Shown in pieces: positions 13,305 through 58,659 of a stretch of 64,000 bases of DNA. Source of the DNA: Candidatus Nealsonbacteria bacterium (GTDB lineage: Bacteria; Patescibacteriota; Minisyncoccia; Minisyncoccales; CAZKCU01). Every line of letters begins with the position of its first letter. Position 1 is the stretch's first letter. A program made the translations under genes and the position numbers. A model generated the notes under the pieces. The model was not told where the DNA came from, made no database searches, and worked only from the letters and a program-made list of their open reading frames with translations. Location: the NCBI GenBank assembly GCA_047456305.1, contig CP179888.1, forward strand, positions 253,307 through 317,306, given 5' to 3'.

Positions 13305-13321
13305 AGAAAATGTAATAAATT

Positions 13322-13762
13322 ATGGATGAATACGAAGTAAATGAGGGAGGAGCTCTGGCAGCTCCTAAAGGAGAGGTTTCGGGAGAAATTGAAGCCTTAG
13401 AGGAAGCAACAAAAAAAGTAGGAGCTCTTTTTAGCCCCGAAGGAATTATAATGCTCTCGATGGCGCTTTTAGTTGATGGCGGTGAGCTTTTGTTCGAGTT
13501 TATTCCCGGAGCTGGACAAATTATTTCAATCGCAATTGATATTTTTGCTGTTCTTTTTTTTGGCTTTTGGATGTGGTTTTTTCGCTCGAAAAGGGCAAAA
13601 ATTACTCCTAAAGCTGCAGTTAGCAGAGCTAAAGTATTACAATGGGGAAAAAGAATGAAATGGCTAAGGCCCTTATGTTTTCTTATTGAATTAATCCCAA
13701 TAGGTAGTAGTTTTCTTCCTTTCTGGATTTTAATAGTTTATCTTGAATTAGTTTATGAATAA
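13322..13762 (+). CDS. Small integral membrane protein (T4SS-locus associated)
   Basis: 146 aa with an acidic N-terminus and 3-4 TM helices. Overlaps the next gene by 8 nt. Confidence 0.55.
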   Translation: MDEYEVNEGGALAAPKGEVSGEIEALEEATKKVGALFSPEGIIMLSMALLVDGGELLFEFIPGAGQIISIAIDIFAVLFFGFWMWFFRSKRAKITPKAAVSRAKVLQWGKRMKWLRPLCFLIELIPIGSSFLPFWILIVYLELVYE

Positions 13763-15314
13763 AAAACAAAAGTTTTTTTTCTTTTTTCTTTTTTTTCTTT
13801 TTTTTATCTTTTGGGCTCATTTTGTTTTGGCAATTGAATTCCGGGCACCGGAAATAAATTATCCTTCTCTTCCTTTCCCTGGGGTTGATTCTCCCCAGGT
13901 TTTTCTTGAAGAAATTAAAGAAGGTAAAATCCCCGGAGAACAGGCTTTTCCTCTCTATGTTAAGTATTTCTATTATCTATTCTTAACGATTGCAGGTTTG
14001 TTGGCTCTTGGGACAATAATTTATGGCGGTTTTCTTTATTTAATTTCAGCTGGCGCCCCGGTTAAAATGATTGCTGCCAGAGAGCAAATTACCGGAGGGA
14101 TTTTAGGGCTGGTTATTCTACTTTCTTCTTATCTAATTTTGGCCACTATCAACCCCCAGCTGACAATCCTTCGGCTTCCCGGCTTAGAAAAAATTACCCT
14201 ACCAGAGATAGAGCTTCCTGAACCTGGTGAAAAAAAACTTCCAACCTATTTCCAGATTCCCCTCGGAATGATTATTGAAAAGACGGTTCTAAACGAAGAA
14301 GCGCAGGAAAAATTAGATTATATCTACCAAACAACAGAAGAGGCAGCAAAAGCGGCAGAAGAGTTATATGAGCTAAGCGAAGAAATATATTCTTTGGTTA
14401 TGAGCGCTGATTGCGGTAATTCAAGATGTCGTGATATCGACTGCTCACCATTTGGATGTACCGGAAAAGACAATCAATCTCAAATAAACACCGTAATAAA
14501 AGAAATACCTCTGGCAATTAAAGATTTAGAAGAAAAAACAAACGAGATATCAATTGCAAAAATCCTTTTAATTAATGACCTTTCTCAATTAGAAGCAGCC
14601 GGGCTTTTAATGAGTTTAGCTTCTGGAGTGTTTGAATATGGTACTCGATTAAATATCGAGTCTTTTCAGGAAATTGAAATTACTTCTTTCCCTGATTGGG
14701 AAGATATTGATATTAAGATGAATGATAAGATAGCTAAAGACCCAGTTACATTTTACTTAGACAAAGAAAGAAATGAACAAGAAATCTATCTCGCCTCAGT
14801 GCTTCGCTTGGCAGGAGACGCTGGTCTTCCGCCTGAGCCTTTGGGAGGTTGGCCAGAACCCCCTCCAGCCGAACCTGGTAAATTACAATGGCCGACTGCA
14901 ACAACAGAAGTAACAAGTGAATTTGGATGGCGCATTCATCCCATATATGGAGTACTAATGTTCCATAACGGTATCGATATTGGGGCGTCCTATGAACCAG
15001 TTTATGCAACTGCTGATGGAACAGTAATTTTTGCAGGGCTGCTTGGTGGATATGGTTATCTTGTAGTTATTAAACACGACGAGCTCGCAACTTTATATGC
15101 TCATTTAAGTAAATACTCTATCTCTGTCAAACGAGGAGATGGAGTGGAAGCTGGCCAACGAATTGCACTAAGCGGCAATACTGGTACAAGTACTGGTCCT
15201 CACCTTCATTTTGAAGTCCGCCATGATCCTTATGATTTAGCTAAGGACTTTTATACATATTCTCTTCTTCGACCTTTAAATCCATTAGGCTATTTGTCAA
15301 AGATAGAATATTAA
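13755..15314 (+). CDS. T4SS-pilin-like (TrbC/VirB2-type) N-domain fused to a Cys-motif linker and a C-terminal M23 metallopeptidase
   Basis: Signal peptide; pilin-like hairpin YVKYFYYLFLTIAGLLALGTIIYGGFLYLISAGAP...GILGLVILLSSYLILATINPQL. M23 motifs HNGIDIG, YAHLS and GNTGTSTGPHLHFEV. Confidence 0.8.
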   Translation: MNKKQKFFFFFLFFLFFIFWAHFVLAIEFRAPEINYPSLPFPGVDSPQVFLEEIKEGKIPGEQAFPLYVKYFYYLFLTIAGLLALGTIIYGGFLYLISAGAPVKMIAAREQITGGILGLVILLSSYLILATINPQLTILRLPGLEKITLPEIELPEPGEKKLPTYFQIPLGMIIEKTVLNEEAQEKLDYIYQTTEEAAKAAEELYELSEEIYSLVMSADCGNSRCRDIDCSPFGCTGKDNQSQINTVIKEIPLAIKDLEEKTNEISIAKILLINDLSQLEAAGLLMSLASGVFEYGTRLNIESFQEIEITSFPDWEDIDIKMNDKIAKDPVTFYLDKERNEQEIYLASVLRLAGDAGLPPEPLGGWPEPPPAEPGKLQWPTATTEVTSEFGWRIHPIYGVLMFHNGIDIGASYEPVYATADGTVIFAGLLGGYGYLVVIKHDELATLYAHLSKYSISVKRGDGVEAGQRIALSGNTGTSTGPHLHFEVRHDPYDLAKDFYTYSLLRPLNPLGYLSKIEY

Positions 15315-15335
15315 TCAAAAGCTGCTAACCAAAAT

Positions 15336-16223
15336 ATGAAAAGATTATTTTTTAAAAAAAACTTAATTTTAAAAACTTTTCTCCTTCTGTTTTTATTTAT
15401 TTCTCTTTTCTTATTTTCGAATTTCTTTTATAATCAAAGTAAGGGAATTTTAGCAGTAGAAGAGACCGAGGAAGTAGAAGAGGCCGAGGAAGAAGAAAAG
15501 GGAAGACTACTCTGCGGAAAGGAAATTCCGGTTGGAGAAGCAATGGAGAAAACCGGGGAATTGTTGGAAGAAATAACAAGGGAACTTGAAAAAATTGAAT
15601 CAAATTCTTATTTTCTCATTAAAACTCAAGAAGACATGGAAGAACTGGCTAAAAATTGCACTATGGAAAACTGTACACCCAAATGTGAAGCTATTACTAT
15701 AAAAGGTGCTACTGTTGCGTGTATTCACAAACCTTGCCAGGGTGACCCTTGCGAAGAAAGAGAAAAAATAGAAAAATTATTTGAGAAAATTACTCGTCTT
15801 AATAAAGAAATTCAGGAAGGTAAAGATAAAATATATAAATTAATTTATAAAAGCGTAGAGCCTCTTTGCATAGAAGGAAATGAAGATATCAGAACTCCTG
15901 GGGAAAAAATTCTATGTGCTACTAATCCAGCTTGTTGGGAATTGACACGGGAAACGCTTCTATCTCTTTTGCCGGAAGATTTCTTAGAAAAAATAGGGCT
16001 CTGCCCAAGCATAACAGTCCAAAAAGCTATAAGCAGAAAATTAAATCTATCAAGGGGTGAATTTGAGAAATGCTATGTGCCGGCAGCTGAGTTAGAAAAG
16101 ATTGGGAAAATATTACTCAATTGCGATACAGTTATGAGCCAAAACCTGCCCCGAGAAACAAAAACAGAAGAAAAAGGAATACCTGTCTGCACCAGTTTGC
16201 ACAATTGGTTTTGTTGCTACTAA
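15336..16223 (+). CDS. Secreted Cys-rich coiled-coil protein
   Basis: N-terminal signal/TM segment, acidic stretch and 18 Cys. The motif NCTMENCTPKCE...CIHKPCQGDPC resembles SADCGNSRCRDIDCSPFGCTG in the middle of the preceding protein. Confidence 0.6.
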   Translation: MKRLFFKKNLILKTFLLLFLFISLFLFSNFFYNQSKGILAVEETEEVEEAEEEEKGRLLCGKEIPVGEAMEKTGELLEEITRELEKIESNSYFLIKTQEDMEELAKNCTMENCTPKCEAITIKGATVACIHKPCQGDPCEEREKIEKLFEKITRLNKEIQEGKDKIYKLIYKSVEPLCIEGNEDIRTPGEKILCATNPACWELTRETLLSLLPEDFLEKIGLCPSITVQKAISRKLNLSRGEFEKCYVPAAELEKIGKILLNCDTVMSQNLPRETKTEEKGIPVCTSLHNWFCCY

Positions 16224-16228
16224 AAAAT

Positions 16229-17332
16229 ATGTCAAATCTTAAAAAAAACGTTTTTGCTCTAATTTTCATCACTTCTTTTGTTTTATTTTTGGGAAGTTCT
16301 CTTTTTATTCAAGCAGCCGAAGAAGAAAGACCACTTGAAATCGAATATCCAGAAATTGGTGAATGGCGGCCAGAAACAGTAGAACAAGCTGTTCTTCCAG
16401 AATACATAAAATATATCTTTAATTTCGCCGTCGCAATTGCCGGCTTAGTTGCTTTTGGGGCCTTAGTTTATGGTGGGTTTCGTTATATAACCTCAGTTGG
16501 CGCGCCAATTGTCCAGACAGAGGCTAAAGACCAAATTTTTGCCGGCATTATAGGGCTTGTTATTTTACTTTCTTCTTATTTAATCTTAACTACTGTTAAT
16601 CCCCAATTAGTAATCTTGACTTTGGAAAAACCTGAATGGCCAGAACTTCCAACTGATTTGCCAGGAGTTTACCTTACTTACCTTATTGACGGAGAGGATG
16701 TAGTAAAATCTTATACTCAAAATGCATCTTCTTTGGATATGCCTAGTGATAGAATGACAGACGTCAAAATAGTCAATCCAATTGATTATGACTATGAAAC
16801 AGAAGAGAAAAAACCGGGAAAATACTACTATGGGGCAATCCTTTTCCCACAGACCGTCTATATAGGAGAACCGCCTGAAATTTGTCGTAGTATAATCCCT
16901 GGGGAAGTGGTAGAAGAGTGGACTTGTCGAATTTCTAAAAAAGCTGCTTCACTGGTTGTCTTTCGAGAAGTTGAAAAAACTGATGGCGAAGTCACACTTT
17001 GTACAGGGACAGAAGGGACAGGAGATTATTGTCACACCTGGGGTTTCACCCGGGATGGGGCGACGGACAACGAGTGGAAGGGATTAGAAAAGCTATCCAA
17101 AAAGGTTTGGTCAATTAAGATTGAAGGAAATTATTTGTTAATTCTTAAGGGTGTGGTCGAAGGTGCGTGGTATACTCGTGATACGGTATACCTCGCACGC
17201 TTTCAAGGCCCGGGTGAATGGCCGGACCTCACAAAATATACAATAAATCAATGTGGTCATCGGTCCTGGAATTTTTGGCATTACTACCAGGACTCTTGTG
17301 CCACCGAGTATATGATTATCCCAACGTATTAA
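16229..17332 (+). CDS. T4SS-pilin-like N-domain protein with a Cys-containing C-terminal beta-rich domain
   Basis: Start moved to ATG 16229 (MSNLKKN...). The N-domain YIKYIFNFAVAIAGLVAFGALVYGGFRYITSVGAP...GIIGLVILLSSYLILTTVNPQL is paralogous to the N-domain of 13755..15314. Confidence 0.75.
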   Translation: MSNLKKNVFALIFITSFVLFLGSSLFIQAAEEERPLEIEYPEIGEWRPETVEQAVLPEYIKYIFNFAVAIAGLVAFGALVYGGFRYITSVGAPIVQTEAKDQIFAGIIGLVILLSSYLILTTVNPQLVILTLEKPEWPELPTDLPGVYLTYLIDGEDVVKSYTQNASSLDMPSDRMTDVKIVNPIDYDYETEEKKPGKYYYGAILFPQTVYIGEPPEICRSIIPGEVVEEWTCRISKKAASLVVFREVEKTDGEVTLCTGTEGTGDYCHTWGFTRDGATDNEWKGLEKLSKKVWSIKIEGNYLLILKGVVEGAWYTRDTVYLARFQGPGEWPDLTKYTINQCGHRSWNFWHYYQDSCATEYMIIPTY

Positions 17333-18632: not shown

Positions 18633-18648
18633 TTTTATTTATGGTTCA

Positions 18649-18704
18649 CCCCGTTAAATAATTCCGCTTTCAGCGGAATTGCTGCAAAGCAGCATTTAAC
18701 GGGG
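18649..18704. repeat. Nested three-way hairpin element, copy A
   Basis: 11-bp outer stem ccccgttaaat/atttaacgggg encloses the hairpins aattccgc-tttca-gcggaatt and gctgc-aaa-gcagc. Contains the yidD stop codon. Confidence 0.85.
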
Positions 18705-18908
18705 TAAATCTACTCCCCCAGGATTCCAAGGGTGACACTTTAATATCCTCTTTATTCCTTTTTTGGTGCCTATTACCGGGCCGTATCTCTTAATAGTTTG
18801 GTAGGTGTATTCTGAGCAACTGGGATAAAAACGGCATCTTTTACCAAAGTTTGGCGAAATAAAAATTTGATAAAATTTAATAATTTTTAAAATTATTTTT
18901 CCGAACAT
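18696..18908 (-). CDS. yidD: Membrane protein insertion efficiency factor YidD
   Basis: FYQIFISP...[19 protein letters not shown]...[17 protein letters not shown] 18908 preferred over the TTG at 18929. Confidence 0.9.
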
Positions 18909-21343: not shown

Positions 21344-22531
21344 TCATACTAATTTGAGTAATTCTTTTACTTTATCTTTCTTTTCCCAGGTAAATTCCGA
21401 CTCTTCCCTGCCAAAATGACCATAACAGGCGGTTTTTCGATAGATGGGCCGCAAAAGATTAAGCTGTTTAATTATTCCGCTTGGTGATAAATCAAAAATT
21501 TTGGGAATAATTTTAACTAATTTTTCTTCAGAAACTTTTCCTGTTCCGAAAGTATCTACACTTACCTCTGTTGGCTTTGTTCCTCCAATGACATAAGACA
21601 GTCTAACTTGGCATTTTTCAGCTAAATTTGCTGCCACAATATTTTTGGCAATATAGCGAGCCATATAGGCTCCTGACCTGTCAACCTTTGTCGAGTCTTT
21701 CCCGCTAAAAGAGCCACCGCCAATAGGAATTTGGGGGCCGTAAGCGTCAACAACATTTTTTCTCCCTGACATACCAGTATCAGAGACCGGTCCCCCAATG
21801 ACAAAGCGACCGGTGTTATTAATATAAATTTTTGTTTTTTTGTCTAATAAATTCTTGTCTACCCAAATTTTTCTATTAAAAATTTGGGCAGATGAACAAA
21901 CAGGTTTAATTACTCTTTTAATAATATCTCTTTTAATTCGATTTAAAGAGACATCGGATTCATGCTGAGCGGCAATTACCACATTGTCCAATCTTTTTGG
22001 TCGGCTATTTTCATATTCTATAGTAACCTGAGATTTTCCATCCGGTCTTAAATAAGGTAAAATTTTCTTTTTTCTAATTTCAGCCAGCCTCATGACCAAT
22101 TTATGAGCTAAGATAATTGGCAAAGGCATCAATTCTGGAGTTTCGTTACAGGCATAACCTACCGAACTACCTTGGTCGCCAGCCCCTTGTTTTTTAGTTC
22201 CGGTTCTTCTCACTCCTCTGGCAATATCAGGCGATTGTCCGTGAATAGTATTAAAAACTCCTACTGTCTTATAATCAAAGCCGTATTCTGGCTTATCATA
22301 GCCAATATCTTTGATTACCTCTCTGGCTAAATTATTCACGTCAACCCAAGTTTTAGTAGTAATTTCTCCGCCAACTATTACATAGCCATTGCCAACCATA
22401 ACCTCACAAGCCACCCGGCCATATTTATCATCCTTTAAAACTGCATCCAAAACAGTGTCAGCAATTTGATCTGCGACTTTGTCGGCGTGTCCAATGGCAA
22501 CTGATTCTGAAGTGAGAAAATATTTTTTCAT
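21344..22531 (-). CDS. metK: S-adenosylmethionine synthetase
   Basis: [20 protein letters not shown]-like N-terminus, [26 protein letters not shown]. 395 aa. Confidence 0.95.
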
Positions 22532-31856: not shown

Positions 31857-31987
31857 ATGCTTTATTTTAACTTATTTTCCGAAAATTTTAAACCCTTGAA
31901 TAAAGGAAGGATTTAAGCTAAATTTAAGTGTATGTTCAACGAATTATAAATTCATTTCACATTTTCGATAAATTAAAATTTATCTCA

Positions 31988-33940
31988 ATGTTCAAGTTAA
32001 GGTCCTCATTTAAACCGACCGGCGACCAACCCCAGGCAATTGAAAAATTGACTAAAAATCTAAAAGATGGGAGGCGATTTAATGTGCTTTTAGGGACGAC
32101 TGGTAGCGGTAAAACCTATACAATGGCAAGGCTAATAGAAAAGGTCCAAAAACCAGTTTTGCTGATATCGCCAAATAAAACTTTATGCGCTCAATTGTTT
32201 CAGGAGTTCAAAGAGTTTTTTCCTGAAAATGCCATTCATTACTTTGTTTCATACTATGACTATTATCAACCTGAAGCTTATATCCCCCAAACCGACACCT
32301 ATATTGAAAAAGATGCTAAAATCAATGAGGAAATTGACAGACTAAGACATTCAGCAACTCAGGATTTGTTAATTAGAGATGATATTATTGTTGTCGCCTC
32401 GGTTTCTTGCATTTATAATATTGGATCGCCAGAAACTTATCAAAAAGTCTCTTTAGAAATTAAACCCGGCCAAAAAGTCAAGAGAAGGGATTTTTTAAAA
32501 AATCTTTGTGTTTTACAATACCGGAGAAATGATATTGATTTCAAGCCCGGAACTTTCCGAGTCAGAGGCAATATTGTCGATATTTATTTAGTAACGGGTA
32601 AAGAAATTTTGAGGGTGGAATTTTCCGGCGATCAAATTTCTTCCCTTTGGCAAGGAAATCCCGATTTTAAAAATAACTATAAACTAAAAACTATAAACTA
32701 TAAACTAATTTATCCGGCTCACTTTTGGGTTACCCCTGAAGAGAAATTGAGCATCGCCATTGAAAATATAAAATTAGAACTACAAGAGAGATTGAAAGAA
32801 TTAAAAAAGCAAAAAAAGTCGCTGGAAGCTCAAAGATTGGAACAGAGAACAAATTATGATTTAGAAATGTTAAAAGAAACCGGCTATTGTCACGGAATCG
32901 AGAACTACTCCCGGCATTTAGAATTTAGGGAACCCGGACAAGCTCCTTATACTTTAATTGATTACTTTCCGAATAATTTTATAGTTTTTATTGATGAATC
33001 CCATATGACCCTACCCCAGCTTCATGCTATGGCAAATCAAGATAGAGCCAGGAAGAAAACCCTCGTTGAATATGGTTTCAGGCTTCCTTCAGCTGTTGAT
33101 AATAGACCTTTAACCTTTGAGGAATTTGAAAAAAAGATTAATCAGGTAATTTATATTTCAGCCACTCCAGGAGAGGAAGAAAAAAGAAAGGCAACTAAAG
33201 AAAATATTATTGAACAATTAATTAAGCCAACCGGATTATTAGAACCCTCAATTGAAGTCAGACCAACAAGAAATCAAGTGAAAGATTTAATAAAAGAAGT
33301 TAAAAGAAGAGTTGCAAAAAGACAAAGAACTTTAGTAATCACTCTCACCAAAAGATTGGCCGAAGCCCTCTCTGATTATTTAGCCGAGGAGGGAATTAAA
33401 ACCCAATGGCTACATTCTGAAATCAAAACCTTAGAGAGACCTCAAATTTTAAAGGAATTGAGAGAAGGAAAATATGATGTTTTGGTTGGGATTAATCTTT
33501 TAAGAGAGGGGTTGGACTTACCAGAAGTTGCTTTAGTTGCAATTTTAGATGCTGATAAAGAAGGATTTTTAAGGTCAGAAACTACTTTAATTCAAACTAT
33601 GGGTCGGGCAGCCAGACACGAAGCTGGCCATGTTATTTTATATGCTGATAAAATTACCAAATCTATGAAAGCTGCGATAAAAGAAGTGAAAAGAAGAAGA
33701 AAAATTCAAATGGAATATAACAAACTTCACAATATTACACCGAAACCAATTATTAAACCGATAAGAGAATGGCCATTTGCCTCCAGGGAAAAGCCCACTG
33801 TTCTCACACAGGAGATAGGGTCAGAATTTTGGATAATCCGGGATAAAAAACTTCTAGAAAAAGAAATGAAAACAGCTGCCCACAATCTTGATTTCGAGAG
33901 GGCGGCAGAAATTAGAGACTTGATAAAAAAACTAAAATAA
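31988..33940 (+). CDS. uvrB: Excinuclease ABC subunit B
   Basis: GDQPQAI, GTTGSGKT, YYDYYQPEAY, DESH, helicase motifs, C-terminal UVR domain FERAAEIRD. ATG 31988 preferred over GTG 31928. Confidence 0.95.
   Translation: MFKLRSSFKPTGDQPQAIEKLTKNLKDGRRFNVLLGTTGSGKTYTMARLIEKVQKPVLLISPNKTLCAQLFQEFKEFFPENAIHYFVSYYDYYQPEAYIPQTDTYIEKDAKINEEIDRLRHSATQDLLIRDDIIVVASVSCIYNIGSPETYQKVSLEIKPGQKVKRRDFLKNLCVLQYRRNDIDFKPGTFRVRGNIVDIYLVTGKEILRVEFSGDQISSLWQGNPDFKNNYKLKTINYKLIYPAHFWVTPEEKLSIAIENIKLELQERLKELKKQKKSLEAQRLEQRTNYDLEMLKETGYCHGIENYSRHLEFREPGQAPYTLIDYFPNNFIVFIDESHMTLPQLHAMANQDRARKKTLVEYGFRLPSAVDNRPLTFEEFEKKINQVIYISATPGEEEKRKATKENIIEQLIKPTGLLEPSIEVRPTRNQVKDLIKEVKRRVAKRQRTLVITLTKRLAEALSDYLAEEGIKTQWLHSEIKTLERPQILKELREGKYDVLVGINLLREGLDLPEVALVAILDADKEGFLRSETTLIQTMGRAARHEAGHVILYADKITKSMKAAIKEVKRRRKIQMEYNKLHNITPKPIIKPIREWPFASREKPTVLTQEIGSEFWIIRDKKLLEKEMKTAAHNLDFERAAEIRDLIKKLK
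32672..32712. repeat. Heptamer tandem tract AACTATA/AACTAAA x5 inside uvrB
   Basis: aactataaactaaaaactataaactataaactaattt encodes NNYKLKTINYKL. Confidence 0.7.
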
Positions 33941-36886: not shown

Positions 36887-37255
36887 TTAATTACCTATTT
36901 GTTTTTTAACTTTATTAATTACCTCTTGGGGGTCGAATTCGGTTTTAATCAGCCAATCTTTCGCTCCCAACTCCTGAGCTTTATCAATTTCCACTGGCTG
37001 ACCAGAATTAGATATGACGATCACTGGAATTTTCTTCAACTCCCTGTCTTTTTTCATCTCTTCCATCACTTCAAAGCCTCCCATCTTTGGCATAATAATA
37101 TCAAGAAGAATAAGGTCGGGTTTTACCTCTTTCATTTTTCCCAGCCCCTCTTGCCCGTCTCTAGCCACTGAAGTTTCATATCCCTCAGCAGTTAGTTTCC
37201 TCTGGAGAAGGTCAATCATAATCTCTTCGTCTTCGACAATTAAAATTTTCTTCAT
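36887..37255 (-). CDS. Stand-alone response-regulator receiver domain (CheY-like)
   Basis: ILIVEDEE, DLILLDIIMPKMGG, PVIVISN, WLIKTEF. 122 aa. Separated from the next receiver gene by 1 nt. Confidence 0.88.
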   Translation of the reverse strand: MKKILIVEDEEIMIDLLQRKLTAEGYETSVARDGQEGLGKMKEVKPDLILLDIIMPKMGGFEVMEEMKKDRELKKIPVIVISNSGQPVEIDKAQELGAKDWLIKTEFDPQEVINKVKKQIGN

Positions 37256-37257
37256 AA

Positions 37258-37356
37258 TTCAAGATTATATATTTACCCTGTTAAATGCTGCTTTGCAGCA
37301 ATTTCGTCTTTGACGAAATTATTTAACAGGGTGAATACCTTAGCGAATCAAGATTC
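37258..37356 (-). repeat. Promoter-hairpin cassette, copy 3, interrupted by nested hairpin element copy B
   Basis: ttcaagattatatattt (-10 half) and ttagcgaatcaagattc (-35 half) are separated by the 56-nt element at 37276..37331. Confidence 0.8.
37276..37331. repeat. Nested three-way hairpin element, copy B (inverted relative to copy A)
   Basis: Outer stem ccctgttaaat/atttaacaggg encloses gctgc-ttt-gcagc and aatttcgtc-ttt-gacgaaatt. Confidence 0.85.
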
Positions 37357-41620: not shown

Positions 41621-43003
41621 ATGCCAGAAGTTTCAAAAAAAATTACAGGTCTAATAGAAATTTCTCCCAAAATACTTGCTGAAACTCAAAAGAAAATAAA
41701 AAATATTTCTGATTTTAAGGAAAAGATTGAAGAGTTTTTAAAAAAGAGTGTCTCGGAAATTTTAGAAGTTATTTTGGGAGGGGGAATAAGTCTCGATGTC
41801 TCTGACATTCACATTGAGCCAGAAGAAAATCAAGCTAAAATCCGAGCCAGAATTGATGGAATCTTACAAGATGTAATAATTTTTGATTTAAAAACATATC
41901 AAACCCTTCTCTCTCGGATTAAGCTTGTTTCTGGAATTAAATTAAATATTACTGATCGACCCCAGGATGGGAGATTCTCTATTGTAATGCCACCAGCCCG
42001 CCCAAGTTTTGCAAAACAAAATTTGGGTGGGCCATCTGAGCCAATTGAAATTAGGGCCTCAACCTTGCCAGCTGAGCATGGAGAATCAATTGTCCTGAGA
42101 ATTTTGAACCCAAAAGGCTTAATTGAAATTGAGGAATTAGGGGTGAGAAAAGATTTATTAGAAATTTTTAAAAAGGAAATAAAAAGGCCGAATGGAATGA
42201 TTATTGTTACCGGGCCTACCGGCTGCGGGAAAAGTACAACTCTATATGCCTTTTTAAAAACAATCCAAAAACCAGAGATTAAAATTATAACTATTGAAGA
42301 CCCTATTGAGTATCATTTAAAAGAGATTTCCCAGACTCAAATTTCTCCGGAAAAAGGTTATGATTTTGCCTCAGGTCTCAAATCCATTATGCGCCAAGAC
42401 CCTGATGTAATTTTAGTAGGAGAAATAAGAGATATGGAAACCGCCAAGATTAGTCTCCAGGCAGCCGTAACCGGCCATTTAGTTTTAACTACCTTGCATA
42501 CTAATGATGCTGCTGGAACAGTGGTCAGGTTGGAAGCCTTGGGAGAAAAACCAGTAAACATTGCTCCGGCAATAAACATGGCTGTCGCCCAAAGATTGGT
42601 CAGAAAAGTTTGCCAGAAATGCCTGAAGCTTGAAAAAATTTCTTCGCTTGATTTTAAAAAAATTAAAAAAGCCCTCAAGGAAATCCCAAAGAAAATAATT
42701 AATCCTCCTAATGGGGTTTCTCCACTATTGAAGGGCAAAAGTTCTGCTGCCTTAAAAATCCCTCAAGTTAAAGGGTGTAAAGATTGTAATTTTACAGGTT
42801 TCAGGGGCCGAATCGGGATTTTTGAGGCTTTTTTAGTTGATAATGAGATGGAAAAATTTATTCTAACTTCGCCTTCAATTTCAGCCCTAAGAGAAAAAGC
42901 TATAAAAAAAGGAATGCTCACTATGTACCAGGATGGAATAATAAAGGTCTTAGAAGGAATTACTACTATCAAAGAGGTAGAAAGAGTAACCGGAATGCAA
43001 TGA
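41621..43003 (+). CDS. GspE/PilB-family type II/IV secretion (pilus assembly) ATPase
   Basis: PQDGRF, Walker A GPTGCGKST, Asp box, Walker B ILVGEIRD, His box TGHLVLTTLHTND, tetracysteine CQKC...CKDC. Confidence 0.9.
   Translation: MPEVSKKITGLIEISPKILAETQKKIKNISDFKEKIEEFLKKSVSEILEVILGGGISLDVSDIHIEPEENQAKIRARIDGILQDVIIFDLKTYQTLLSRIKLVSGIKLNITDRPQDGRFSIVMPPARPSFAKQNLGGPSEPIEIRASTLPAEHGESIVLRILNPKGLIEIEELGVRKDLLEIFKKEIKRPNGMIIVTGPTGCGKSTTLYAFLKTIQKPEIKIITIEDPIEYHLKEISQTQISPEKGYDFASGLKSIMRQDPDVILVGEIRDMETAKISLQAAVTGHLVLTTLHTNDAAGTVVRLEALGEKPVNIAPAINMAVAQRLVRKVCQKCLKLEKISSLDFKKIKKALKEIPKKIINPPNGVSPLLKGKSSAALKIPQVKGCKDCNFTGFRGRIGIFEAFLVDNEMEKFILTSPSISALREKAIKKGMLTMYQDGIIKVLEGITTIKEVERVTGMQ
41996..42032. 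repeat. 37-nt near-perfect palindromic element inside the pilB-like CDS
   Basis: gcccgcccaagttttg-caaaa-caaaatttgggtgggc forms a 16-bp stem. Same family as 58271..58305. Confidence 0.85.
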
Positions 43004-49066: not shown

Positions 49067-50197
49067 CTATGTCCCTTTAATTGGCATTGCAACATAGATA
49101 TAACTTTCATCCCCTACTGGTTTTAAAACTCCAGGGCCTACCTCGCCATTTAGCTCAAAAATCACCTCTGAACTTTTTATATTCAAGAGCCCGCTATTTA
49201 AAAATCTATAATTAAAAGAAATTTCTTCCTCTTTCCCTTTTGTTTTCCCTGAGAGTAAAGAATGGTATTCTCCAGTTTCGGGATTCTGGCTGGAAATCTC
49301 TACTATTTCTTTTTTAGGGTCAATTTTAAATTTGACCTCATTTATTTTCCCGCTAAAAAGACTGGCCGCTTTAATCTGATTTAAAAATTCCTGCTTATCT
49401 AAAATAACCTGAGTTTCATATTTTTTAGGAATAATTTCTTGATAGTTTGGGTATTCTCCTTCGATTAATTTTGAAGTAAGATGAATTTCTGGATGGGGGG
49501 TTTCGGACATTGTAGACTCAAATAAAATTTGGTTAGGGTTAACCAGGATTTTAATCTCTCCTTGTTTTTCTCCAAAAATATTAATTATTTCTTTTGCTGT
49601 TTTTTGGGGCAGAATCAGGGAGATTTCCTTTTCAATTGTAAGTGGTTTTTTTAAAAACAGAGTTTTTTCACCTAATCTAAAACTATCAGTAGCTGCCATT
49701 TTTATTAAGTCTTTTTGGATAAGGAAATGGATGCCTGAAATTTCAGGCTTTACTGTAGAAGGAAGAGCAATGTCTACAATTTGATTTAAGGCCTGACAAA
49801 AAGAATAACTGTCAAGAGAAAATGAGATGCCTTCTGATATTTCAGGAATAATCGGAAAATCTTCTGAGCTTTGTCCTTTTATTTTGGTTTTATAACCCTC
49901 ACATTCAACAGATAGAATTTGATTATGGGCTGTTAATTCAACCGGTTTTTCAGGTAAGAGACTTATAAAAGTTGACAAAATAGAACTTGGAACAGTAACC
50001 TCACCTTCTTTTTCTATTTTAGAAAGAACCCACCATTTAATTCCTATTTCTAAGTCTGTCGCTGCTAATAATAAAAAGTTTTTTTCAGCTTTTAAAAGAA
50101 GATTTCTAAGAATAGGTAAAGTAAAAGATTTAGAGGAAACTCTTTCAATGATGTTAAGTCCTTGTTTTAATTTATTTTGTAATATTATTAATTTCAT
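49067..50197 (-). CDS. dnaN: DNA polymerase III beta sliding clamp
   Basis: 376 aa with three-domain length. LPILRNLLLKA, MAATDSFRL. Sits directly downstream of dnaA. Confidence 0.9.
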   Translation of the reverse strand: MKLIILQNKLKQGLNIIERVSSKSFTLPILRNLLLKAEKNFLLLAATDLEIGIKWWVLSKIEKEGEVTVPSSILSTFISLLPEKPVELTAHNQILSVECEGYKTKIKGQSSEDFPIIPEISEGISFSLDSYSFCQALNQIVDIALPSTVKPEISGIHFLIQKDLIKMAATDSFRLGEKTLFLKKPLTIEKEISLILPQKTAKEIINIFGEKQGEIKILVNPNQILFESTMSETPHPEIHLTSKLIEGEYPNYQEIIPKKYETQVILDKQEFLNQIKAASLFSGKINEVKFKIDPKKEIVEISSQNPETGEYHSLLSGKTKGKEEEISFNYRFLNSGLLNIKSSEVIFELNGEVGPGVLKPVGDESYIYVAMPIKGT

Positions 50198-50255
50198 TAT
50201 AGTTATAGGTAATGGGTAAAACTATTTTTTTAAATAGATTAGTCAAAAGAAAACT

Positions 50256-50342
50256 AGTGGAAAACGAGCAAAGAAGTAGTTAATTAATTAGGGATAATAA
50301 AAAGAAGAAAAGAAAAAGAAATTTTTAAAGAGATTTTCCACT
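50256..50342. promoter_or_regulatory. Inverted pair of DnaA-box-like 9-mers TTTTCCACT in the dnaA-dnaN spacer
   Basis: agtggaaaa at 50256..50264 and ttttccact at 50334..50342, plus tttttcaca at 50357..50365. The spacer is AT-rich. Confidence 0.4.
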
Positions 50343-50402
50343 TTTAATACCATGCCTTTTTCACAAATTGACCAAGGAAATTTTTAGCAAAAGGGTAAAA
50401 AC

Positions 50403-51752
50403 TCAGATGCTAAAAACAAGTTGCCTGATTAACTCAATTTCTTCCTTTAAATTTTCGTTTGTTTCAAGTTCTTTTAAAATTTTCTTGTAGGAATGAATAG
50501 CTGTGGTATGGTCTTTTCCCCCTATTTTCCTTCCTATAAAAGGGTAGGAACTTTTTAAGTCTTCCCTTAATAAATACATCGCAATCTGGCGAGGTCTGAC
50601 GATTTCTCTTTTACGTGAGGAATCTAAAAGGTTATTTTCTTTAAGGTCGTAAAACTTAGCTACCGCCCTGATTATTTTTTTCGGTGTGGCTATTTTAGTT
50701 GGAGAAAAGAGTAATTTTTTAAGCAAAGATTTAGCTTCTTCGGGCTCTAAGGATTGGTTATTTAACTTTTGATAAGCGACTAATCTGTTCAAAGCTCCTT
50801 CAAGTTCCCTAATATTTCTTTGGATGTTTGATGCGATATAGACAAGAGTTTCTTCGGGAGGGCTAATTTTTTTTTCTTGGGCCTTTGTTTTAAGAATAGC
50901 CATTCTTGTTTCGAAATCAGGATAACCAATATCAGCTATCATTCCTCCCTCAAACCTAGACCTTAGTCTCTCCGTGAGTGCAGGGATAGCCTTTGGGGGC
51001 CGGTCAGAGGAAAGAACTATTTGTTTATTTCTTTCGTAAAGGGTATTAAAAGTATGGAAAAACTCTTCTTGGGTTTTTTCTTTCCCAGCCAGAAATTGAA
51101 CATCATCAATAATAAGGACATCTATCGCCCGGTATTTCGTTTTAAAACTTTCCATAGTATGATTTTTAATTGCCGTTACCACCCCAGAGGTGAATTTTTC
51201 AGAAGGAATATATTTTAATTTTTTTTCTGGAAAATTTTTAGTTATCTCATTACCGATTGCCTGCAGTAAATGGGTTTTGCCGAGACCCACCCCTCCATAA
51301 ACAAATAAAGGATTGTAGATAAGGCCAGGATCTTTTGAGGATGCCCAGGCAGCGGCCTGTGGTAGTTCATTAAAAGGGCCGACTACAAAATTTTCAAAAG
51401 TATAGCGGGGGTTAAGATTAGTATCTTTGTCAATTTTTAATTCTTGAAACTCAAGCTGGTCCGATTCTGGGTAAGAGAAAGAGGGTTTTTTAAAAACTTT
51501 TAATCCCTGTCGGACAACAGTATATTTAATCTCTTTAATTTCTTCGTCCAAACTATGCAAGAGTTTAAAAATAATTTTGTTGTATTTATTTTCAAGCCAC
51601 TCTTTGGCAAAAGAATTGGGAACAGAAACTATAACCTGGCCTTCTTTCTGAGAAAGAATCCCGGTATTTTTAAACCATGTACTAAAATTAGCCTGGGAAA
51701 TATTTAATTGGATTTGGGCCAAAACCGTCTGCCACAATTCCTCCTTGGTCAT
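50403..51752 (-). CDS. dnaA: Chromosomal replication initiator DnaA
   Basis: Walker A GGVGLGKTHL, IDDVQFL, sensor motifs, C-terminal DNA-binding KDHTTAIHSYKKI. A GGGGA SD lies 7 nt upstream. Confidence 0.95.
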   Translation of the reverse strand: MTKEELWQTVLAQIQLNISQANFSTWFKNTGILSQKEGQVIVSVPNSFAKEWLENKYNKIIFKLLHSLDEEIKEIKYTVVRQGLKVFKKPSFSYPESDQLEFQELKIDKDTNLNPRYTFENFVVGPFNELPQAAAWASSKDPGLIYNPLFVYGGVGLGKTHLLQAIGNEITKNFPEKKLKYIPSEKFTSGVVTAIKNHTMESFKTKYRAIDVLIIDDVQFLAGKEKTQEEFFHTFNTLYERNKQIVLSSDRPPKAIPALTERLRSRFEGGMIADIGYPDFETRMAILKTKAQEKKISPPEETLVYIASNIQRNIRELEGALNRLVAYQKLNNQSLEPEEAKSLLKKLLFSPTKIATPKKIIRAVAKFYDLKENNLLDSSRKREIVRPRQIAMYLLREDLKSSYPFIGRKIGGKDHTTAIHSYKKILKELETNENLKEEIELIRQLVFSI

Positions 51753-52060
51753 AAGTGTTCCCCTAAAATTAAAAGATAAAATATTTTTGCGTTTTTAATT
51801 ACGCCTTAATTTTTTGGTTTTTCTTTCTTAATAAATTATACCACAAAGTCAATCGGATAGTAAAATAAACATCAAATTCAGAAAGATGTTAATAAACTGG
51901 GGAGAACTTGTGGGTTATAAAAAACTTAATAGTCGGTTAATATTCTAATCCAAATTAATAGAAAATTTCTGAAAAGAATCAACGGGAAAGAAATATATTG
52001 CCAACACTTTCCTTAAACTCAAACAGGTTGACAGATATTTTTAGGAGGTTAATAATAAAA

Positions 52061-52218
52061 GTGAGGGGGTGCGAGGGAATCTCCTCTAAGGACACGGTTT
52101 TAATGGAGGAGGTTTGAGGTACGTGCCTGGTTACGTCCGACACCAGTGAGTCTCTGATAAACTGATATCATTAAGGCCGCTCCCCCTCACTAAAGAAGAG
52201 GTGCTTCACCTCTTTTTT
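52061..52218 (+). ncRNA. Candidate structured RNA or riboswitch-like leader with an intrinsic terminator (family not identified)
   Basis: GC-rich island. The closing stem gtgaggggg(t)gcg / cgc(t)ccccctcac encloses ~105 nt with internal helices (cuccuc/gaggag, cugg/ccag, gaua/uauc). It is followed by aagaggtg-ctt-cacctcttTTTT at 52196..52218, 30 nt before ATG 52248. Confidence 0.45.
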
Positions 52219-52247
52219 AGTTTTTAAAGATGTGTTAAACTAAAAAT

Positions 52248-54221: not shown

Positions 54222-56720
54222 ATGCAATTCTTCGCTGATTTTCATCTACATTCAAAATATTCAAGAGCGACCTCTCCTCAGATGGATTTGGAAAATCTTG
54301 ATAAGTGGGCAAAAATTAAAGGAATAAAAGTTTTAGGGACTACTGATTTTACCCATCCTATTTGGTTTAAAGAGTTAAAGGAGAAATTAGAACCTGCTGA
54401 GCCAGGTTTATTTAAATTAAAAAATTCAGATTCAGAAACCCGTTTTATTTTAACTACAGAAATTAGCTGCATTTATTCAAAAAAAGGAAGGGTTCGAAAG
54501 ATTCATATTATAGTTTTTGCTCCTGATTTTAAAACAGTTGAAAAAATTAATACCCATTTGGGCTGGATTGGGAATCTAAAATCAGATGGCCGGCCAATTT
54601 TAGGATTAGATGCCAAAGAATTAGCAAAAATTGTTTTAAATGTTTCCGATAGTTGTTTAGTAGTACCTGCTCACTGTTTATTGCCTAATACTTATCTTCA
54701 TAGTAATCTAGGGATCAAAATGATAAAAGATATATCTGTAGGTGATCGTGTTTACACGCATGAAGGGCGATTTAAGAAAGTAGAAAAAGTTTATACAAGA
54801 GCTTATAAAGGGCAAATTTATAACATAAAACCTTACTATTTTAGGATAGGGTTGAAAACTACTTCTGAACATCCTTTTTATATAATTAAGACTCATTGGT
54901 GCCCTAATATGGGGCATACTATTTGCAAGAAGAGTTGTGCCTTTATTGATCACAGTAGTTGTTCTTATAAGTATTTTGAAAATTATCAACCTAAATGGAT
55001 ACAAGCGAAAAATATTAGAAAAGGAGATGTTCTGATTTTTCCTCGCTTTAATAAAATTATTAAGAATATAAAGGAGATAAAACTTAATAGATATTTAAAG
55101 CGAAGCGAATATCAATTAGAAAGAAATTTTATAAAAGCTGCTAGTGGTACCAGAGCGAACTTTATACCCAATACAATAAAAATAACTAAGGGGTTTTGCA
55201 GATTAGTTGGTTATTATTTGTCCGAAGGATATACAGATTATAGAGATTCTGTTTCTTTCTGTTTTAATGAGAAAGAAAAAGATTATATTGAGGATGTAAA
55301 AAATTTGATGGCGAAGATATTTCATCTTTCCTATTGTCGGAAATACAAAAGAAAAAGTAGCAAAAGTACAGAATTAATATTTTTCTCAAAACCTCTCGCT
55401 CAGATTTTTGGTAGATTATTCTATGATGATTCTATTTTAAGAAGAGCCCATACGAAGTGTTTACCCCATTGGATGTTGAATTTACCGCTAGACAAACAGG
55501 TAGAAATTTTAAAAAGTTGGTGGTGGGGAGATACGGGATGTACTTCTTCAAGGATGTTGATGAATCAAATGAAAATAATTTGTCTTAGACTAGGAATAAT
55601 TCCTTCTATTAATCAACAATCTAAAGAAGATTTTAATGAGAAATATGCTCATAAGCATAAAATAGAAGATAGGACTATTTGGGCACAACACGATCATTTT
55701 CATTTCTACGGACTCTCATTTTTCCAAGATTTATTTGGGTTATTGGAAACTTCTGAATTTAAAAAATTTAATACTAAACTTCATCGAAGACATGGATGGA
55801 TTGATGAGGATTATGTTTATATGCCGATTCGCGATATTGAAATCACAAATTATAAAGGAAAGGTTTATAATTTAGAAGTAGAGAAAGATAATTCTTATGT
55901 TAGTGAATTTGCAACAGTTCATAATTGTTGGACTCCATGGTTTGCTTTGTTTGGTTCAAAATCAGGGTTTGATTCAATTGAAGAATGTTTTGAAGATTAT
56001 TCAAAATATATTTTTGCCGGCGAAACTGGGTTATCTGCGAACCCGAAAATGTTTTGGCGGATGCCTGATGGTCGAAAACTTAGTTTAATCTCAAACAGTG
56101 ATTCACACAGTCCGGCCAAGTTGGGCAGAGAAGCAAATGTTTTTGACACGGAATTGAGTTATAATGCGATAATAGAAGCCATTAAACAAAAAGACCCTCA
56201 AAAATTTTTATACACCATTGAATTTTTTCCCGAAGAGGGCAAATATCATTTTGACGGCCACAGGAATTGCAATATAAGTTTAAGTCCGGCTGAAACCAAA
56301 AAATACAATGGAATTTGTCCTCGCTGTGGAAGACCCTTAACTGTTGGAGTTCTAAATCGAGTTGAACAATTAGCCGACCGGCCCGAGGGATTTAAGCCTC
56401 AAGGTGCCATACCTTTTAAAAGTTTGATTCCTTTGGCAGAAATAATTGCTGAAGTTTTAGGTGTTGGGGTTGGCACAAAAGAAGTAGAAAAACAATACAA
56501 GGACCTGATTGAAAAATTCGGTTCAGAATTTAATGTTTTGCTTAACGTTTCTGTTTCTGATTTGAGAGCAGCAACTTTGCCCGAAATTGCCGAAGCCATT
56601 TCAAGAGTCCGCGAGGGAAAAGTGAGTGTTGAGCCAGGCTACGATGGAGTTTATGGGAAAATCAGGATTTTTTCGAAAGGTGAGAAAAAAGACTTATCTC
56701 GCCAAGGAACCTTGTTTTAA
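54222..56720 (+). CDS. EndoQ-like PHP-domain nuclease (TIGR00375-type) interrupted by an intein
   Basis: N-extein FADFHLHSKYSRATS...GTTDFTHPIWF...VVPAH. C-extein CWTPWFALFGSKSGFDSIEE...SNSDSHSP...CPRCGRPLTVGVLNRV. The exteins total about 415 aa. Confidence 0.85.
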   Translation: MQFFADFHLHSKYSRATSPQMDLENLDKWAKIKGIKVLGTTDFTHPIWFKELKEKLEPAEPGLFKLKNSDSETRFILTTEISCIYSKKGRVRKIHIIVFAPDFKTVEKINTHLGWIGNLKSDGRPILGLDAKELAKIVLNVSDSCLVVPAHCLLPNTYLHSNLGIKMIKDISVGDRVYTHEGRFKKVEKVYTRAYKGQIYNIKPYYFRIGLKTTSEHPFYIIKTHWCPNMGHTICKKSCAFIDHSSCSYKYFENYQPKWIQAKNIRKGDVLIFPRFNKIIKNIKEIKLNRYLKRSEYQLERNFIKAASGTRANFIPNTIKITKGFCRLVGYYLSEGYTDYRDSVSFCFNEKEKDYIEDVKNLMAKIFHLSYCRKYKRKSSKSTELIFFSKPLAQIFGRLFYDDSILRRAHTKCLPHWMLNLPLDKQVEILKSWWWGDTGCTSSRMLMNQMKIICLRLGIIPSINQQSKEDFNEKYAHKHKIEDRTIWAQHDHFHFYGLSFFQDLFGLLETSEFKKFNTKLHRRHGWIDEDYVYMPIRDIEITNYKGKVYNLEVEKDNSYVSEFATVHNCWTPWFALFGSKSGFDSIEECFEDYSKYIFAGETGLSANPKMFWRMPDGRKLSLISNSDSHSPAKLGREANVFDTELSYNAIIEAIKQKDPQKFLYTIEFFPEEGKYHFDGHRNCNISLSPAETKKYNGICPRCGRPLTVGVLNRVEQLADRPEGFKPQGAIPFKSLIPLAEIIAEVLGVGVGTKEVEKQYKDLIEKFGSEFNVLLNVSVSDLRAATLPEIAEAISRVREGKVSVEPGYDGVYGKIRIFSKGEKKDLSRQGTLF
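54675..55925 (+). mobile_element. Intein (417 aa) with a LAGLIDADG homing-endonuclease domain
   Basis: Starts at Cys (CLLPNTYL...GDRVYT), block B TTSEHPF, LAGLIDADG motifs LVGYYLSEGY and ILKSWWWGDTG, terminal KVYNLEVEKDNSYVSEFATVHN followed by +1 Cys. 1251 nt, in frame. Confidence 0.85.
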
Positions 56721-57555: not shown

Positions 57556-58659
57556 TTAAAAATTTTTACCTAAAAAGGAAATTGAGCTTCCTTTGACCTT
57601 AAATTTTCCTTCAATGAATTTTTCAATTACCCAGATGTTAGTTTTACAATGATTGGTAATTTCTGAAACTGTAACTTGGTTTTTGCCAGGGGCTAAGGCC
57701 ATAAAAATTAAAATTTGATCTCCTAAATGTTTATCCAAACAGGCTCCAGATTTCTGTTCTTTTAATAATTCCAAAGCTGCTTCTTTGCCTACATCTTCTG
57801 CCCTCTTACCTAATTTTCCCAAATTATCGGTTCCAATTACTGTATTTTCAAATTCGACAATTAGGCAAATTTGACTGCCCGGGCATTGAGTTTGATAATA
57901 CTCAATTTTTTCTTCAATGGGTAATTTTAATTTTCCTAAAATCTCTCTTACCCCAGCAATTTGGCGCTCAGCCACTTTTTTATCTTTCAAGATATTTGAG
58001 GCTCCGGAGATTACTAAAATTTTTTTAAGTGAACCTCGCTCAGTAAGATTAAGATTTTTTAGTTTAGACGGAAAAACTCTTATCTCCACTTTTGCTCCAC
58101 CTTCTGGGTAATATCCTCGTTTTAAAACACTGATTTCAACTAGCGGAGAACGGTTCTCCGTCAAATTCATTTTTTCTAAAGTTGGTAAAAAGACATAGCG
58201 AAAATAATCAATAGTAGGCGAGAAAAAAGTATCAGTTGCTCCGCCAGTAAAAATAATTTTTAGAGGCTTGCCCTCCCAAATTTTGTTAGACAAAACTTGG
58301 GAGGGTGAAGGAGCAAATAAAGCCGGCAGAATCAAAGTTTGTAAAACTAAGGTTATGCTTCCAGCAGTAGGAATATTTACAGAGACCCGGTCTCTGTAAA
58401 TATCTCCAGGGTAAAACTTAATTTCTTCACTTTCTAATCTATCACCTTCTAACCGTCCATTACAGAACTGTGCCAAAGCTTGAATGCCTAAAAGATGTTG
58501 AATGGACAGGCCCGGTTTGGGCCTCGACTTGCGAATATTGAAAATTCGGCAGGGTTTTTGAGTTACTGCCGAAAGAGCGCAGGCACTTCGTAAAGTTTGA
58601 CCTCCGCCGGAGCCGTAGGAACCGTCAATTTCAATAAGATTTTGATTTGGCATAATCAA
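57556..58659 (-). CDS. rtcA: RNA 3'-terminal phosphate cyclase
   Basis: IDGSYGSGGGQTLRSACALS, RPKPGLSIQHL, GGATD, DKHLGDQIL. Carries an in-frame palindromic element. Confidence 0.9.
   Translation of the reverse strand: MIMPNQNLIEIDGSYGSGGGQTLRSACALSAVTQKPCRIFNIRKSRPKPGLSIQHLLGIQALAQFCNGRLEGDRLESEEIKFYPGDIYRDRVSVNIPTAGSITLVLQTLILPALFAPSPSQVLSNKIWEGKPLKIIFTGGATDTFFSPTIDYFRYVFLPTLEKMNLTENRSPLVEISVLKRGYYPEGGAKVEIRVFPSKLKNLNLTERGSLKKILVISGASNILKDKKVAERQIAGVREILGKLKLPIEEKIEYYQTQCPGSQICLIVEFENTVIGTDNLGKLGKRAEDVGKEAALELLKEQKSGACLDKHLGDQILIFMALAPGKNQVTVSEITNHCKTNIWVIEKFIEGKFKVKGSSISFLGKNF
58271..58305. repeat. 35-nt palindromic element inside the rtcA CDS
   Basis: ccctcccaaattttg-ttaga-caaaacttgggaggg. 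Family partner of 41996..42032. Confidence 0.85.

Follow-up and report, generated by a model that had tools for sequence, protein, structure and literature searches.

A 39-nt palindromic element in frame in conserved genes of a Candidatus Nealsonbacteria bacterium and of other Patescibacteria

Introduction

Rickettsia palindromic elements (RPEs) are roughly 100-150 bp in length, add 30-50 residues to the proteins in which they are found, and are confined to Rickettsia. To our knowledge, the known cases of in-frame palindromic elements in bacteria come essentially from Rickettsia only. The series RPE-1 to RPE-8 reportedly goes back to Ogata et al. 2000 and Claverie and Ogata 2003. In this study, we analyzed a short palindromic element in a 64-kb stretch (hereafter called the window; GC ~35%) of the metagenome-assembled genome (MAG) of a Candidatus Nealsonbacteria bacterium, which belongs to Patescibacteria, the candidate phyla radiation (CPR). 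An original prediction, made from the letters of the window, had placed a palindrome in frame in two genes, a pilB-like ATPase gene and rtcA, and had likened it to RPEs.

Other systems of short hairpins are also relevant. HUH transposases, namely IS200/IS605 with the repetitive extragenic palindromic (REP) sequences and their REP-associated tyrosine transposases (RAYTs), and IS91, recognise hairpins, cut beside a tetranucleotide, make no duplication and excise precisely. The insertion tetranucleotides are CTTG/GTTC in IS91 and TTAC in IS608. REPs are extragenic and possess GTAG or CGTC tetranucleotide tags (PMC3733652). Miniature inverted-repeat transposable elements, or MITEs, measure 50-800 bp, carry terminal inverted repeats and target duplications, and are ~90% intergenic (PMC11602168). 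Hairpin repeats within mitochondrial coding sequence have been described in Nematomorpha (PMC6649704) and in sponges as RHE (PMC2800124). RPE work is cited in PMC1779305 and PMC10969869.

Compared with these systems, in-frame palindromic selfish DNA is a known concept, and what appears to be new is the present element itself, its REP-like size, its phylum-wide reach and its exact gain and loss as 13 codons. The original prediction had regarded the element as undescribed. In agreement with this, no account of elements of this kind from Patescibacteria or CPR turned up in our search of full-text literature, whose coverage leaves out most subscription papers.

Results

Three copies of one element in the window

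The window contains exactly three copies of the element, all within conserved genes (Table 1). Copies were searched for with the core pattern, with mismatches allowed, and then with a covariance model, which was made from 56 members of the family and applied without filters. The core pattern gave three matches, as compared with 0.00 expected by chance. With the covariance model, the three sites scored 44-65 bits, and any other site in the window scored 11.5 bits at most.

Both sequences of the original prediction were found within intact open reading frames (ORFs), those of the pilB-like ATPase and of RtcA, and they are indeed one element in unrelated genes. These two copies are real, but a third one, in metK, had been overlooked. 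The description as a perfect palindrome holds only if G.T is counted as a pair: two G.T mismatches are present in the pilB copy, and one mismatch in that of rtcA, which is A.C on the plus strand and G.T on the gene strand. RtcA and MetK score above the curated NCBIfam cutoffs. The pilB-like ATPase is assigned to the GspE/PilB family by NCBIfam with a score below the equivalog cutoffs.

Table 1. Positions of the three element copies, their host genes and the empty uvrB site in the window
Feature	Position	Strand	Details
Copy 1, 43-nt unit	41993..42035	+	In pilB-like ATPase gene; CCAG-CCCGCCCAAGTTTTGCAAAACAAAATTTGGGTGGG-CCAT; 54.6 bits
Copy 1, 35-nt core	41997-42031	+	
Copy 1, 37-nt palindrome	41996-42032	+	
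Copy 1, 39-nt indel	41993-42031, or one of three equivalent placements, the last of them 41996-42034		
Copy 1, peptide	Residues 126-138 of pilB-like ATPase		ARPSFAKQNLGGP
Copy 2, 43-nt unit	58267..58309	-	In rtcA; gene sense TTCA-CCCTCCCAAGTTTTGTCTAACAAAATTTGGGAGGG-CAAG; 65 bits
Copy 2, core	58271-58305	-	
Copy 2, 39-nt indel	58271-58309	-	
Copy 2, peptide	Residues 118-130 of RtcA		SPSQVLSNKIWEG
Copy 3, 43-nt unit	21854..21896	-	In metK; gene sense TTCA-TCTGCCCAAATTTTTAATAGAAAAATTTGGGTAGA-CAAG; 49.7 bits; new here
Copy 3, core	21858-21892	-	
Copy 3, 39-nt indel	21858-21896	-	
Copy 3, peptide	Residues 213-225 of MetK		13 residues
Host gene of copy 1	41621..43003	+	GspE/PilB-family secretion or pilus ATPase, 460 aa; NCBIfam
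Host gene of copy 2	57556..58659	-	RNA 3'-terminal phosphate cyclase RtcA, 367 aa; NCBIfam
Host gene of copy 3	21344..22531	-	Methionine adenosyltransferase MetK, 395 aa; NCBIfam
Empty site in uvrB (gene 31928-33940)	32960..32980	+	GAT TAC TTT / CCG AAT AAT TTT

Exact gain and loss of 13 codons

For each of the three proteins, the best 120 homologs were aligned. The 13 extra residues of the pilB-like ATPase were seen in the window protein only (0/120 homologs), and are missing even from a homolog that is 95% identical. In RtcA, the window protein shares them with P0241, P0242, P0260 and P0263, and the remaining homologs, including one 90% identical, do not have them. In MetK, 9 of the 120 homologs have them; the two closest (92-93% identical) are among those that do not. 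The homology search for MetK also gave a 100% identical protein (P0001), which is on record for a Candidatus Nealsonbacteria MAG.

The DNA was compared with the closest relative, from JGI sample 3300022538. A single clean 39-nt gap was observed in each gene: in the pilB-like gene against L115 (98.3% nucleotide identity), in rtcA against L116 (94.8%) and in metK against L117 (95.5%). A fourth site is in uvrB, which is empty in the window. A family copy of exactly 13 codons is present at the same codon of this gene in two MAGs, one of Nealsonbacteria (L015) and one of Saccharibacteria (L005), which brings the exact 39-nt indels to four sites in total. These results show that the element comes and goes as a block of exactly 39 nt, namely 13 codons. 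The original prediction was right that the insertions lie where homologs are shorter, as both the homolog and the DNA alignments show at all three sites, and its estimate of about 12-14 codons is narrowed to exactly 13 at each site. Distant orthologs that have the same extra residues also carry the palindromic DNA. The 39-nt indel of the pilB-like gene can be placed in several equivalent ways because of a CCA microhomology. The window pilB allele was also found on an independent contig (L127) in a metagenome scan for the pilB loop variant.

The close relative (95-98% identical) lacks all three window copies, and no copy is present in ~19 kb of its orthologous DNA. Likewise, a relative with an 82% identical RtcA has no copy in 21 kb around dnaA/oriC. 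By covariance model, no family copy was detected in the close relatives L115-L118 and L145. A covariance-model search of 35 loci gave one new copy (L065), and that of 14 other loci gave second copies in L134 and L137 and a nested copy in L120. Since close relatives live without them, the individual copies are dispensable. The presence or absence of the element separates strains that are 95-98% identical, and is a marker at the strain level.

A family in Patescibacteria

A scan of species-representative genomes with the pattern CCCAARTTTT-N7-AAAAYTTGGG gave at least 114 loci, of which 113 were usable. Among the usable matches listed, 53 of 113 have in common the 43-nt consensus YTYR-CCCKCCCAARTTTTGC-NNN-GCAAAAYTTGGGMGGG-YRAR, and in the alignment of these 53 copies the information content collapses beyond the 43-nt span. 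The unit consists of a 35-nt core, CCCKCCCAARTTTTGC-NNN-GCAAAAYTTGGGMGGG, in which the 3-nt loop is free, with a semi-conserved tetranucleotide (TTYA or CYYG) on either side.

Taxa were assigned by record titles. Among the matches listed, the hosts are Saccharibacteria, Nealson-, Wolfe-, Portnoy-, Jorgensen-, Sungii- and Taylorbacteria, and unclassified Patescibacteria MAGs. The host genes include those for UvrB, DnaE (DNA polymerase III alpha), RpoC (RNA polymerase beta'), LepA, a Mur ligase, a class II aminoacyl-tRNA synthetase and ComEC. In metagenomes, the pilB loop variant, that is, the same element with its loop, occurs in rtcA, in a 577-aa ORF and at some short-ORF sites, and also in YqeY/GatB-like and RecO-like ORFs as judged by sequence motifs only. 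Further copies thus exist not only in metK of the window, and the family is widespread in Patescibacteria (CPR), including Saccharibacteria and many Parcubacteria lineages.

Template switching is able to create palindromes, and such events, or errors of assembly, might have produced each palindrome independently rather than as copies of one element. The chance of this is negligible: independent assemblies from NCBI, JGI, ENA and Logan hold the same stretch of at least 35 nt in dozens of unrelated genes, and the indel boundaries are exact.

Other matches of the scan are different local repeat families that share the core only. In MAGs outside Patescibacteria, the core CCCAAATTTT-N7-AAAATTTGGG forms the centre of different, genome-specific palindromic repeats, for example ATAGGAAACCC...GGGTTTCCTAT and GCCGACC..CCCAAATTTTCC. 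Such loci were found in a Saprospiraceae MAG (g2_MAG_00029; L009, L010, L013, L033, L039, L067, L071, L088, L092 and L095), where most core-bearing copies are outside long ORFs, and in an Omnitrophota MAG (RS_11_35; L003, L081, L096 and L101). These repeats could reflect a distant relationship or convergence.

Stem structure and reading frames

The stem is imperfect in a constant way. The same G.T/A.C mismatch occupies the R/Y stem position in 42 of the 53 copies (79%), and therefore it is a conserved feature of the family and not scattered decay. At the K/M stem pair, 32 copies have T-A, 12 have G-C and 4 have G.T. This is the position at which the original prediction had noticed a compensatory difference between the pilB and rtcA copies (G/T against T/A), and it is a covarying pair in the family. 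The loop-proximal pairs vary as GC, TA, AT and CG. Over the stem, 82 double-change cells were counted as compensatory pairs, as compared with 40.5 in shuffles. Both strands fold as stable hairpins (-10.7 to -15 kcal/mol; z -2.8 to -7.1).

Stop-free frames of at least 150 aa contain 37 of 55 copies (67%), whereas random positions in these loci fall in such frames in 79.5% of cases. At least three of these 37 copies are at the very start of the frame, possibly just upstream of the gene. The share of family copies in long ORFs is about 60-67%. The reading frames are used in the ratio 11:10:16, and the three frames give three peptide families: (T/A)(L/R)P(S/N)F..(K/Q)NLGG, PPKF...K(L/F)GR and P(S/A)Q(I/V)L..K(T/I)WEG. 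In the core consensus, all frames of both strands are free of stop codons. A stop can arise only through the loop or through the flank variants TAAA and TGAA, and these variants are missing from the frame in which they would be read as stops. Therefore, an intragenic copy merely lengthens the protein.

The strand with the G.T mismatch is the gene strand in 13 copies and the opposite strand in 19, which means that both orientations are used. The retention of pairing through G:U had suggested a hairpin specific to mRNA, and this idea is rejected by the same counts. Because all frames and both orientations are used, the element acts as DNA; it is neither a peptide module nor a signal in mRNA. Peptides such as SPSQVLxNKIWEGK do recur in several proteins, as would be expected if the inserts were protein-level motifs selected in loops. 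We regard this explanation as very improbable, since the same DNA is read in three frames to give three unrelated peptide families, both orientations occur, about one-third of the copies are outside long ORFs, the inserts have low confidence in AlphaFold models, and no match to the peptides was found in NCBIfam. The queries of this NCBIfam search (E<=1) were the three peptides together with the three host proteins. In Rfam at gathering thresholds, the only match was to a tRNA, and none was to the element.

Two functional candidates were also considered. As a Shine-Dalgarno donor, the element was rejected: only 1 of 53 copies has the GGGAGGG arm suitably spaced from a start codon. For a parS-like site, there is no canonical parS in the window, and the lack of copies in close relatives lends the idea no support.

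Position of the inserts in the proteins

In an AlphaFold model of the pilB-like ATPase, the insert coincides exactly with a segment whose predicted local distance difference test score (pLDDT) is below 50, the only such segment in that region, and it lies between the strands E115-122 and E142-151. The RtcA insert is modeled between a helix (102-114) and a strand (133-139) with a pLDDT of ~61. At the insert position, the closest solved MetK structure (3iml) has a 12-residue gap, and the closest solved UvrB structure (2fdc) also has a gap. These results show that the element persists where 13 extra residues fall between secondary-structure elements. The inserts probably occupy surface loops.

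The PilB hairpin turn and the RtcA loop hold other, unrelated short palindromic inserts in other Patescibacteria (PilB in L122, 1501-2838, and L123, 6001-7407; RtcA in L124, 6001-7161). Examples are CCCCCCACCA-AAAT-TGGTGGGGGG, GCTCGGC-TTC-GCCGAGC, GATGAATCT-TTAG-ATTCATC and CCCCAAATTCGC-GAAA-GCGAATTTGGGG. It may be that the phylum as a whole tends to acquire palindromes in frame, with several families involved.

History of individual copies

Judged from the alignments, the pilB copy is a recent gain, because it has no counterpart in the best 120 homologs, including the gene that is 98.3% identical. The history of metK looks different. Filled metK alleles occur in at least four clades, and their nearest neighbours are empty at 88-97% amino-acid identity. 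The copies in lineages with ~77% nucleotide identity share derived departures from the consensus, namely a T..A outer pair (TCY..GAY) and a T-A loop-proximal pair. Their K/M pair changes in a compensatory manner: the window has G.T, L120 has G-C and L121 has T-A. The neighbour-joining tree of metK has weak deep resolution, and only the relationships of its tips were used. The shared derived changes together with the empty nearest neighbours point to one old insertion in metK, which would have been followed by repeated exact losses. For RtcA, the filled P0242 and the empty P0243 (95.4%) are closer to each other than P0242 is to the protein of the window. Second insertions nested in the loops of existing copies were found in metK of L121 and in the AdoHcyase gene of L120.

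Another explanation of the patchy distribution is that the rtcA, metK and uvrB sites are hot spots, at which an active site-specific integrase acts repeatedly, the empty alleles having never been filled and the filled ones all being recent. Three lineages whose rtcA genes are 67-70% identical have almost the same copy there, including the loop and flanks, pilB is a clear recent gain, and the PilB hairpin turn has received several unrelated palindromic inserts in other lineages; all of these are consistent with hot spots. On the other hand, the metK copies of distant lineages share derived differences and vary by compensatory changes, as is expected for descent in place, and the empty sites have no obvious target sequence in common. 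We therefore consider hot spots a possible but doubtful explanation.

Junctions and flanks

When the left tetranucleotide and the 35-nt core are removed from rtcA, metK and uvrB, sensible codons are restored, and CAAG remains just 3' of the junction. The exact gain and loss of 39 nt and the presence of CAAG (=CTTG) at three of four junctions, though not at that of pilB, might fit a behaviour of the IS200/IS605 or IS91 type. In the family alignment (columns 3-6 and 42-45), the flanks are TTYA at 48 ends, CYYG at 41 ends and mixed at 11. Flank positions 1 and 4 covary strongly within a flank (Fisher p = 5e-16). Models with target-site duplications of 2, 3 and 4 nt were tried, and each of them suits only some of the sites.

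Other features of the window and its relatives

In rtcA, a second palindrome, which is perfect, is located at 58373-58403 (15+1+15; ATATTTACAGAGACC-G-GGTCTCTGTAAATAT). The peptide that it encodes, DIYRDRVSVNI, is conserved and has the same length as in homologs. An rtcA gene with no more than 72% identity still has the 9+1+9 core of this palindrome at the nucleotide level. In P0244 and P0246, a 36-nt insert is found at the centre of this palindrome.

An intergenic element of ~65 nt with three hairpins is present in two copies in opposite orientation (18645-18708 and 37270-37337). Its outer stem, ACCCYGTTAAAT/ATTTAACRGGGT, encloses GCTGC-NNN-GCAGC and AATTYCGYC-NNN-GRCGRAATT. The copies are just upstream of the starts of minus-strand genes, namely yidC and an ORF without annotation (36887-37255). 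No Rfam match to this element was found.

The 832-aa ORF at 54222-56720 contains an intein (Intein_splicing and LAGLIDADG_3). In the relative L145, the syntenic gene (11933-13180) encodes 415 aa and has no intein domain on record. The intein is thus probably a further in-frame selfish insertion in the window, the homology of the L145 gene being deduced from its position only. L145 also possesses a reverse-transcriptase gene (RVT_1; 5643-6776) amid neighbours that are syntenic with the window, which has no counterpart of it. A type IV secretion-like cluster (PrgI, TraG/VirB4-like ATPase, M23 peptidase and type IV secretion system pilin) at 10388-17332 is kept in the close relative L117.

The genes dnaN and dnaA are on the minus strand (49067-51752) and are followed by an intergenic gap of ~500 bp at about 51753-52247. 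The minimum of the cumulative GC skew is nearby, at ~40-44 kb. The replication origin is probably within the window. Relative to oriC near 52 kb, the three element copies have no consistent orientation, and they are too few for a test of replication strand.

Discussion

Our results make it probable that the three sequences are members of one family of insertion elements, short palindromes which are REP-sized and largely stop-free and which enter and leave genes as a 39-nt unit. The exact gain and loss of 39 nt points to an uncharacterised enzymatic activity. The element would be selfish or nearly neutral and would be moved in trans. In the mechanism that we propose, a trans-acting enzyme would recognise the hairpin, cut next to a tetranucleotide, and catalyse both integration and excision; by analogy, it might resemble the HUH/Y1 single-strand transposases of IS200/IS605, RAYT-REP and IS91. 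Small genomes and a high coding density would mean that a REP-like element ends up inside genes.

Several observations weigh against this reading. No transposase domain of any kind was detected among the 60 ORFs of the window, and no enzyme could be linked to the element. In viral contigs, no copy was found that could account for the phylum-wide spread, and a phage vector was set aside for lack of a match there. At the junctions, neither a consistent target-site duplication (mean 1.2 of 4 flank matches) nor a single target motif was observed. CAAG is 3' of the junction in only three of four cases, and the recent pilB event has the CCA microhomology instead. The two flank types of a copy assort independently between the ends; a model in which one end belongs to the element and the other to the target was rejected for this reason. 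Finally, orthologous copies are too well conserved. In rtcA, 44-47 of 48 nt match in the element region, as compared with 67-70% identity over the gene and ~53% at third codon positions, and in uvrB 39 of 45 nt match between Nealsonbacteria and Saccharibacteria genes that are 63% identical. A purely neutral passenger should decay, and therefore this conservation requires either recurrent site-specific insertion or selection at the DNA level.

Selection at the DNA or RNA level leads to the main alternative, namely that the element is a functional cis-element, for example a binding site for a conserved Patescibacteria protein of the nucleoid, replication, repair or uptake, and that it is in genes because intergenic space is scarce. 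The conservation of the sequence across Saccharibacteria and Parcubacteria lineages agrees with this, as do the orthologous copies that are far more conserved than their host genes, synonymous positions included, the maintenance of the stem by compensatory changes, and the stem mismatch common to 79% of copies. However, the close relative lacks all three copies and has none in its ~19 kb, another relative has none in the 21 kb around its oriC, the positions are scattered over unrelated genes, the orientation is unbiased relative to transcription, and no Rfam family matches. We consider a cis-element of this kind unlikely.

A more speculative reading is an active, sequence-specific Patescibacteria system that inserts and cleanly removes a 39-nt hairpin cassette at defined positions in essential genes, with the sequence kept constant through recognition by a conserved host enzyme or DNA-binding protein. 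We put this forward only tentatively. If it is true, the element would not be junk in decay; it would represent a new element-host relationship, or else a chromosomal signal that acts in cis from within coding sequence. The puzzle is that the 43-nt sequence is nearly invariant across the phylum while single copies come and go. For practical purposes, the element explains some of the 13-residue insertions observed here in proteins of these bacteria, which matters for alignments, phylogenies and structure prediction.

The element shares features with several known systems. It resembles REPs and REPINs in its 20-40 nt size, in its imperfect palindrome with a conserved mismatch, in the tetranucleotide beside the stem, in being non-autonomous and in the absence of target duplication. 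REPs occur at high copy number; in the window, the density is 3 copies per 64 kb, and the size and imperfect stem are REP-like. In contrast, REPs are extragenic by definition and often form doublets or clusters, whereas the Patescibacteria copies are singletons and mostly in genes. The flanks also differ, being TTYA or CYYG on both sides rather than GTAG or CGTC. REPs depend on RAYTs (Y1 transposases), and no RAYT was detected among the 60 ORFs of the window, which represents 64 kb of about 640 kb.

By analogy, the element may be compared with IS200/IS605 and IS91, which are hairpin-dependent, insert beside a tetranucleotide without duplication and excise precisely. These elements have two distinct subterminal hairpins and a fixed asymmetry, whereas here a single symmetric hairpin is found and the flank types are independent. 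MITEs such as Correia, ERIC/RU and cMITEs (PMC11602168, PMC2229807, PMC2759123) are similarly short, non-autonomous, made with inverted repeats and occasionally intragenic. In contrast, the Patescibacteria element is 39-43 nt, consists entirely of a hairpin, is mostly genic and has no consistent direct repeats. The palindromes of mitochondrial coding sequence are comparable as hairpin repeats tolerated in the genes of compact genomes, but they are organellar, differ in size and sequence, and are not phylum-wide.

The likeness to RPEs, which the original prediction had stressed, is a likeness of behaviour. In both cases, a reduced genome has a repeated palindrome in frame in genes that are unrelated to each other and often essential, the ORFs stay intact, the insert is in tolerated parts of the protein, the distribution among relatives is patchy, and no transposase is known. 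Curated domain models of the RPE families exist in TIGRFAM/NCBIfam. No RPE domain model matched the element peptides or the host proteins at E<=1 in NCBIfam, release 20.0, in which the presence of RPE models was not confirmed. The resemblance is an analogy and not homology: the sequences are unrelated, and the present element, with 39 nt or 13 residues, is ~3-fold shorter. It would be a second bacterial case, in which a much smaller element is found in core genes such as those for RpoC, DnaE, UvrB and MetK across a huge radiation. RPEs are a matter of Rickettsia, whereas the Patescibacteria element spans Saccharibacteria and many Parcubacteria lineages with a sequence that is almost constant across the phylum.

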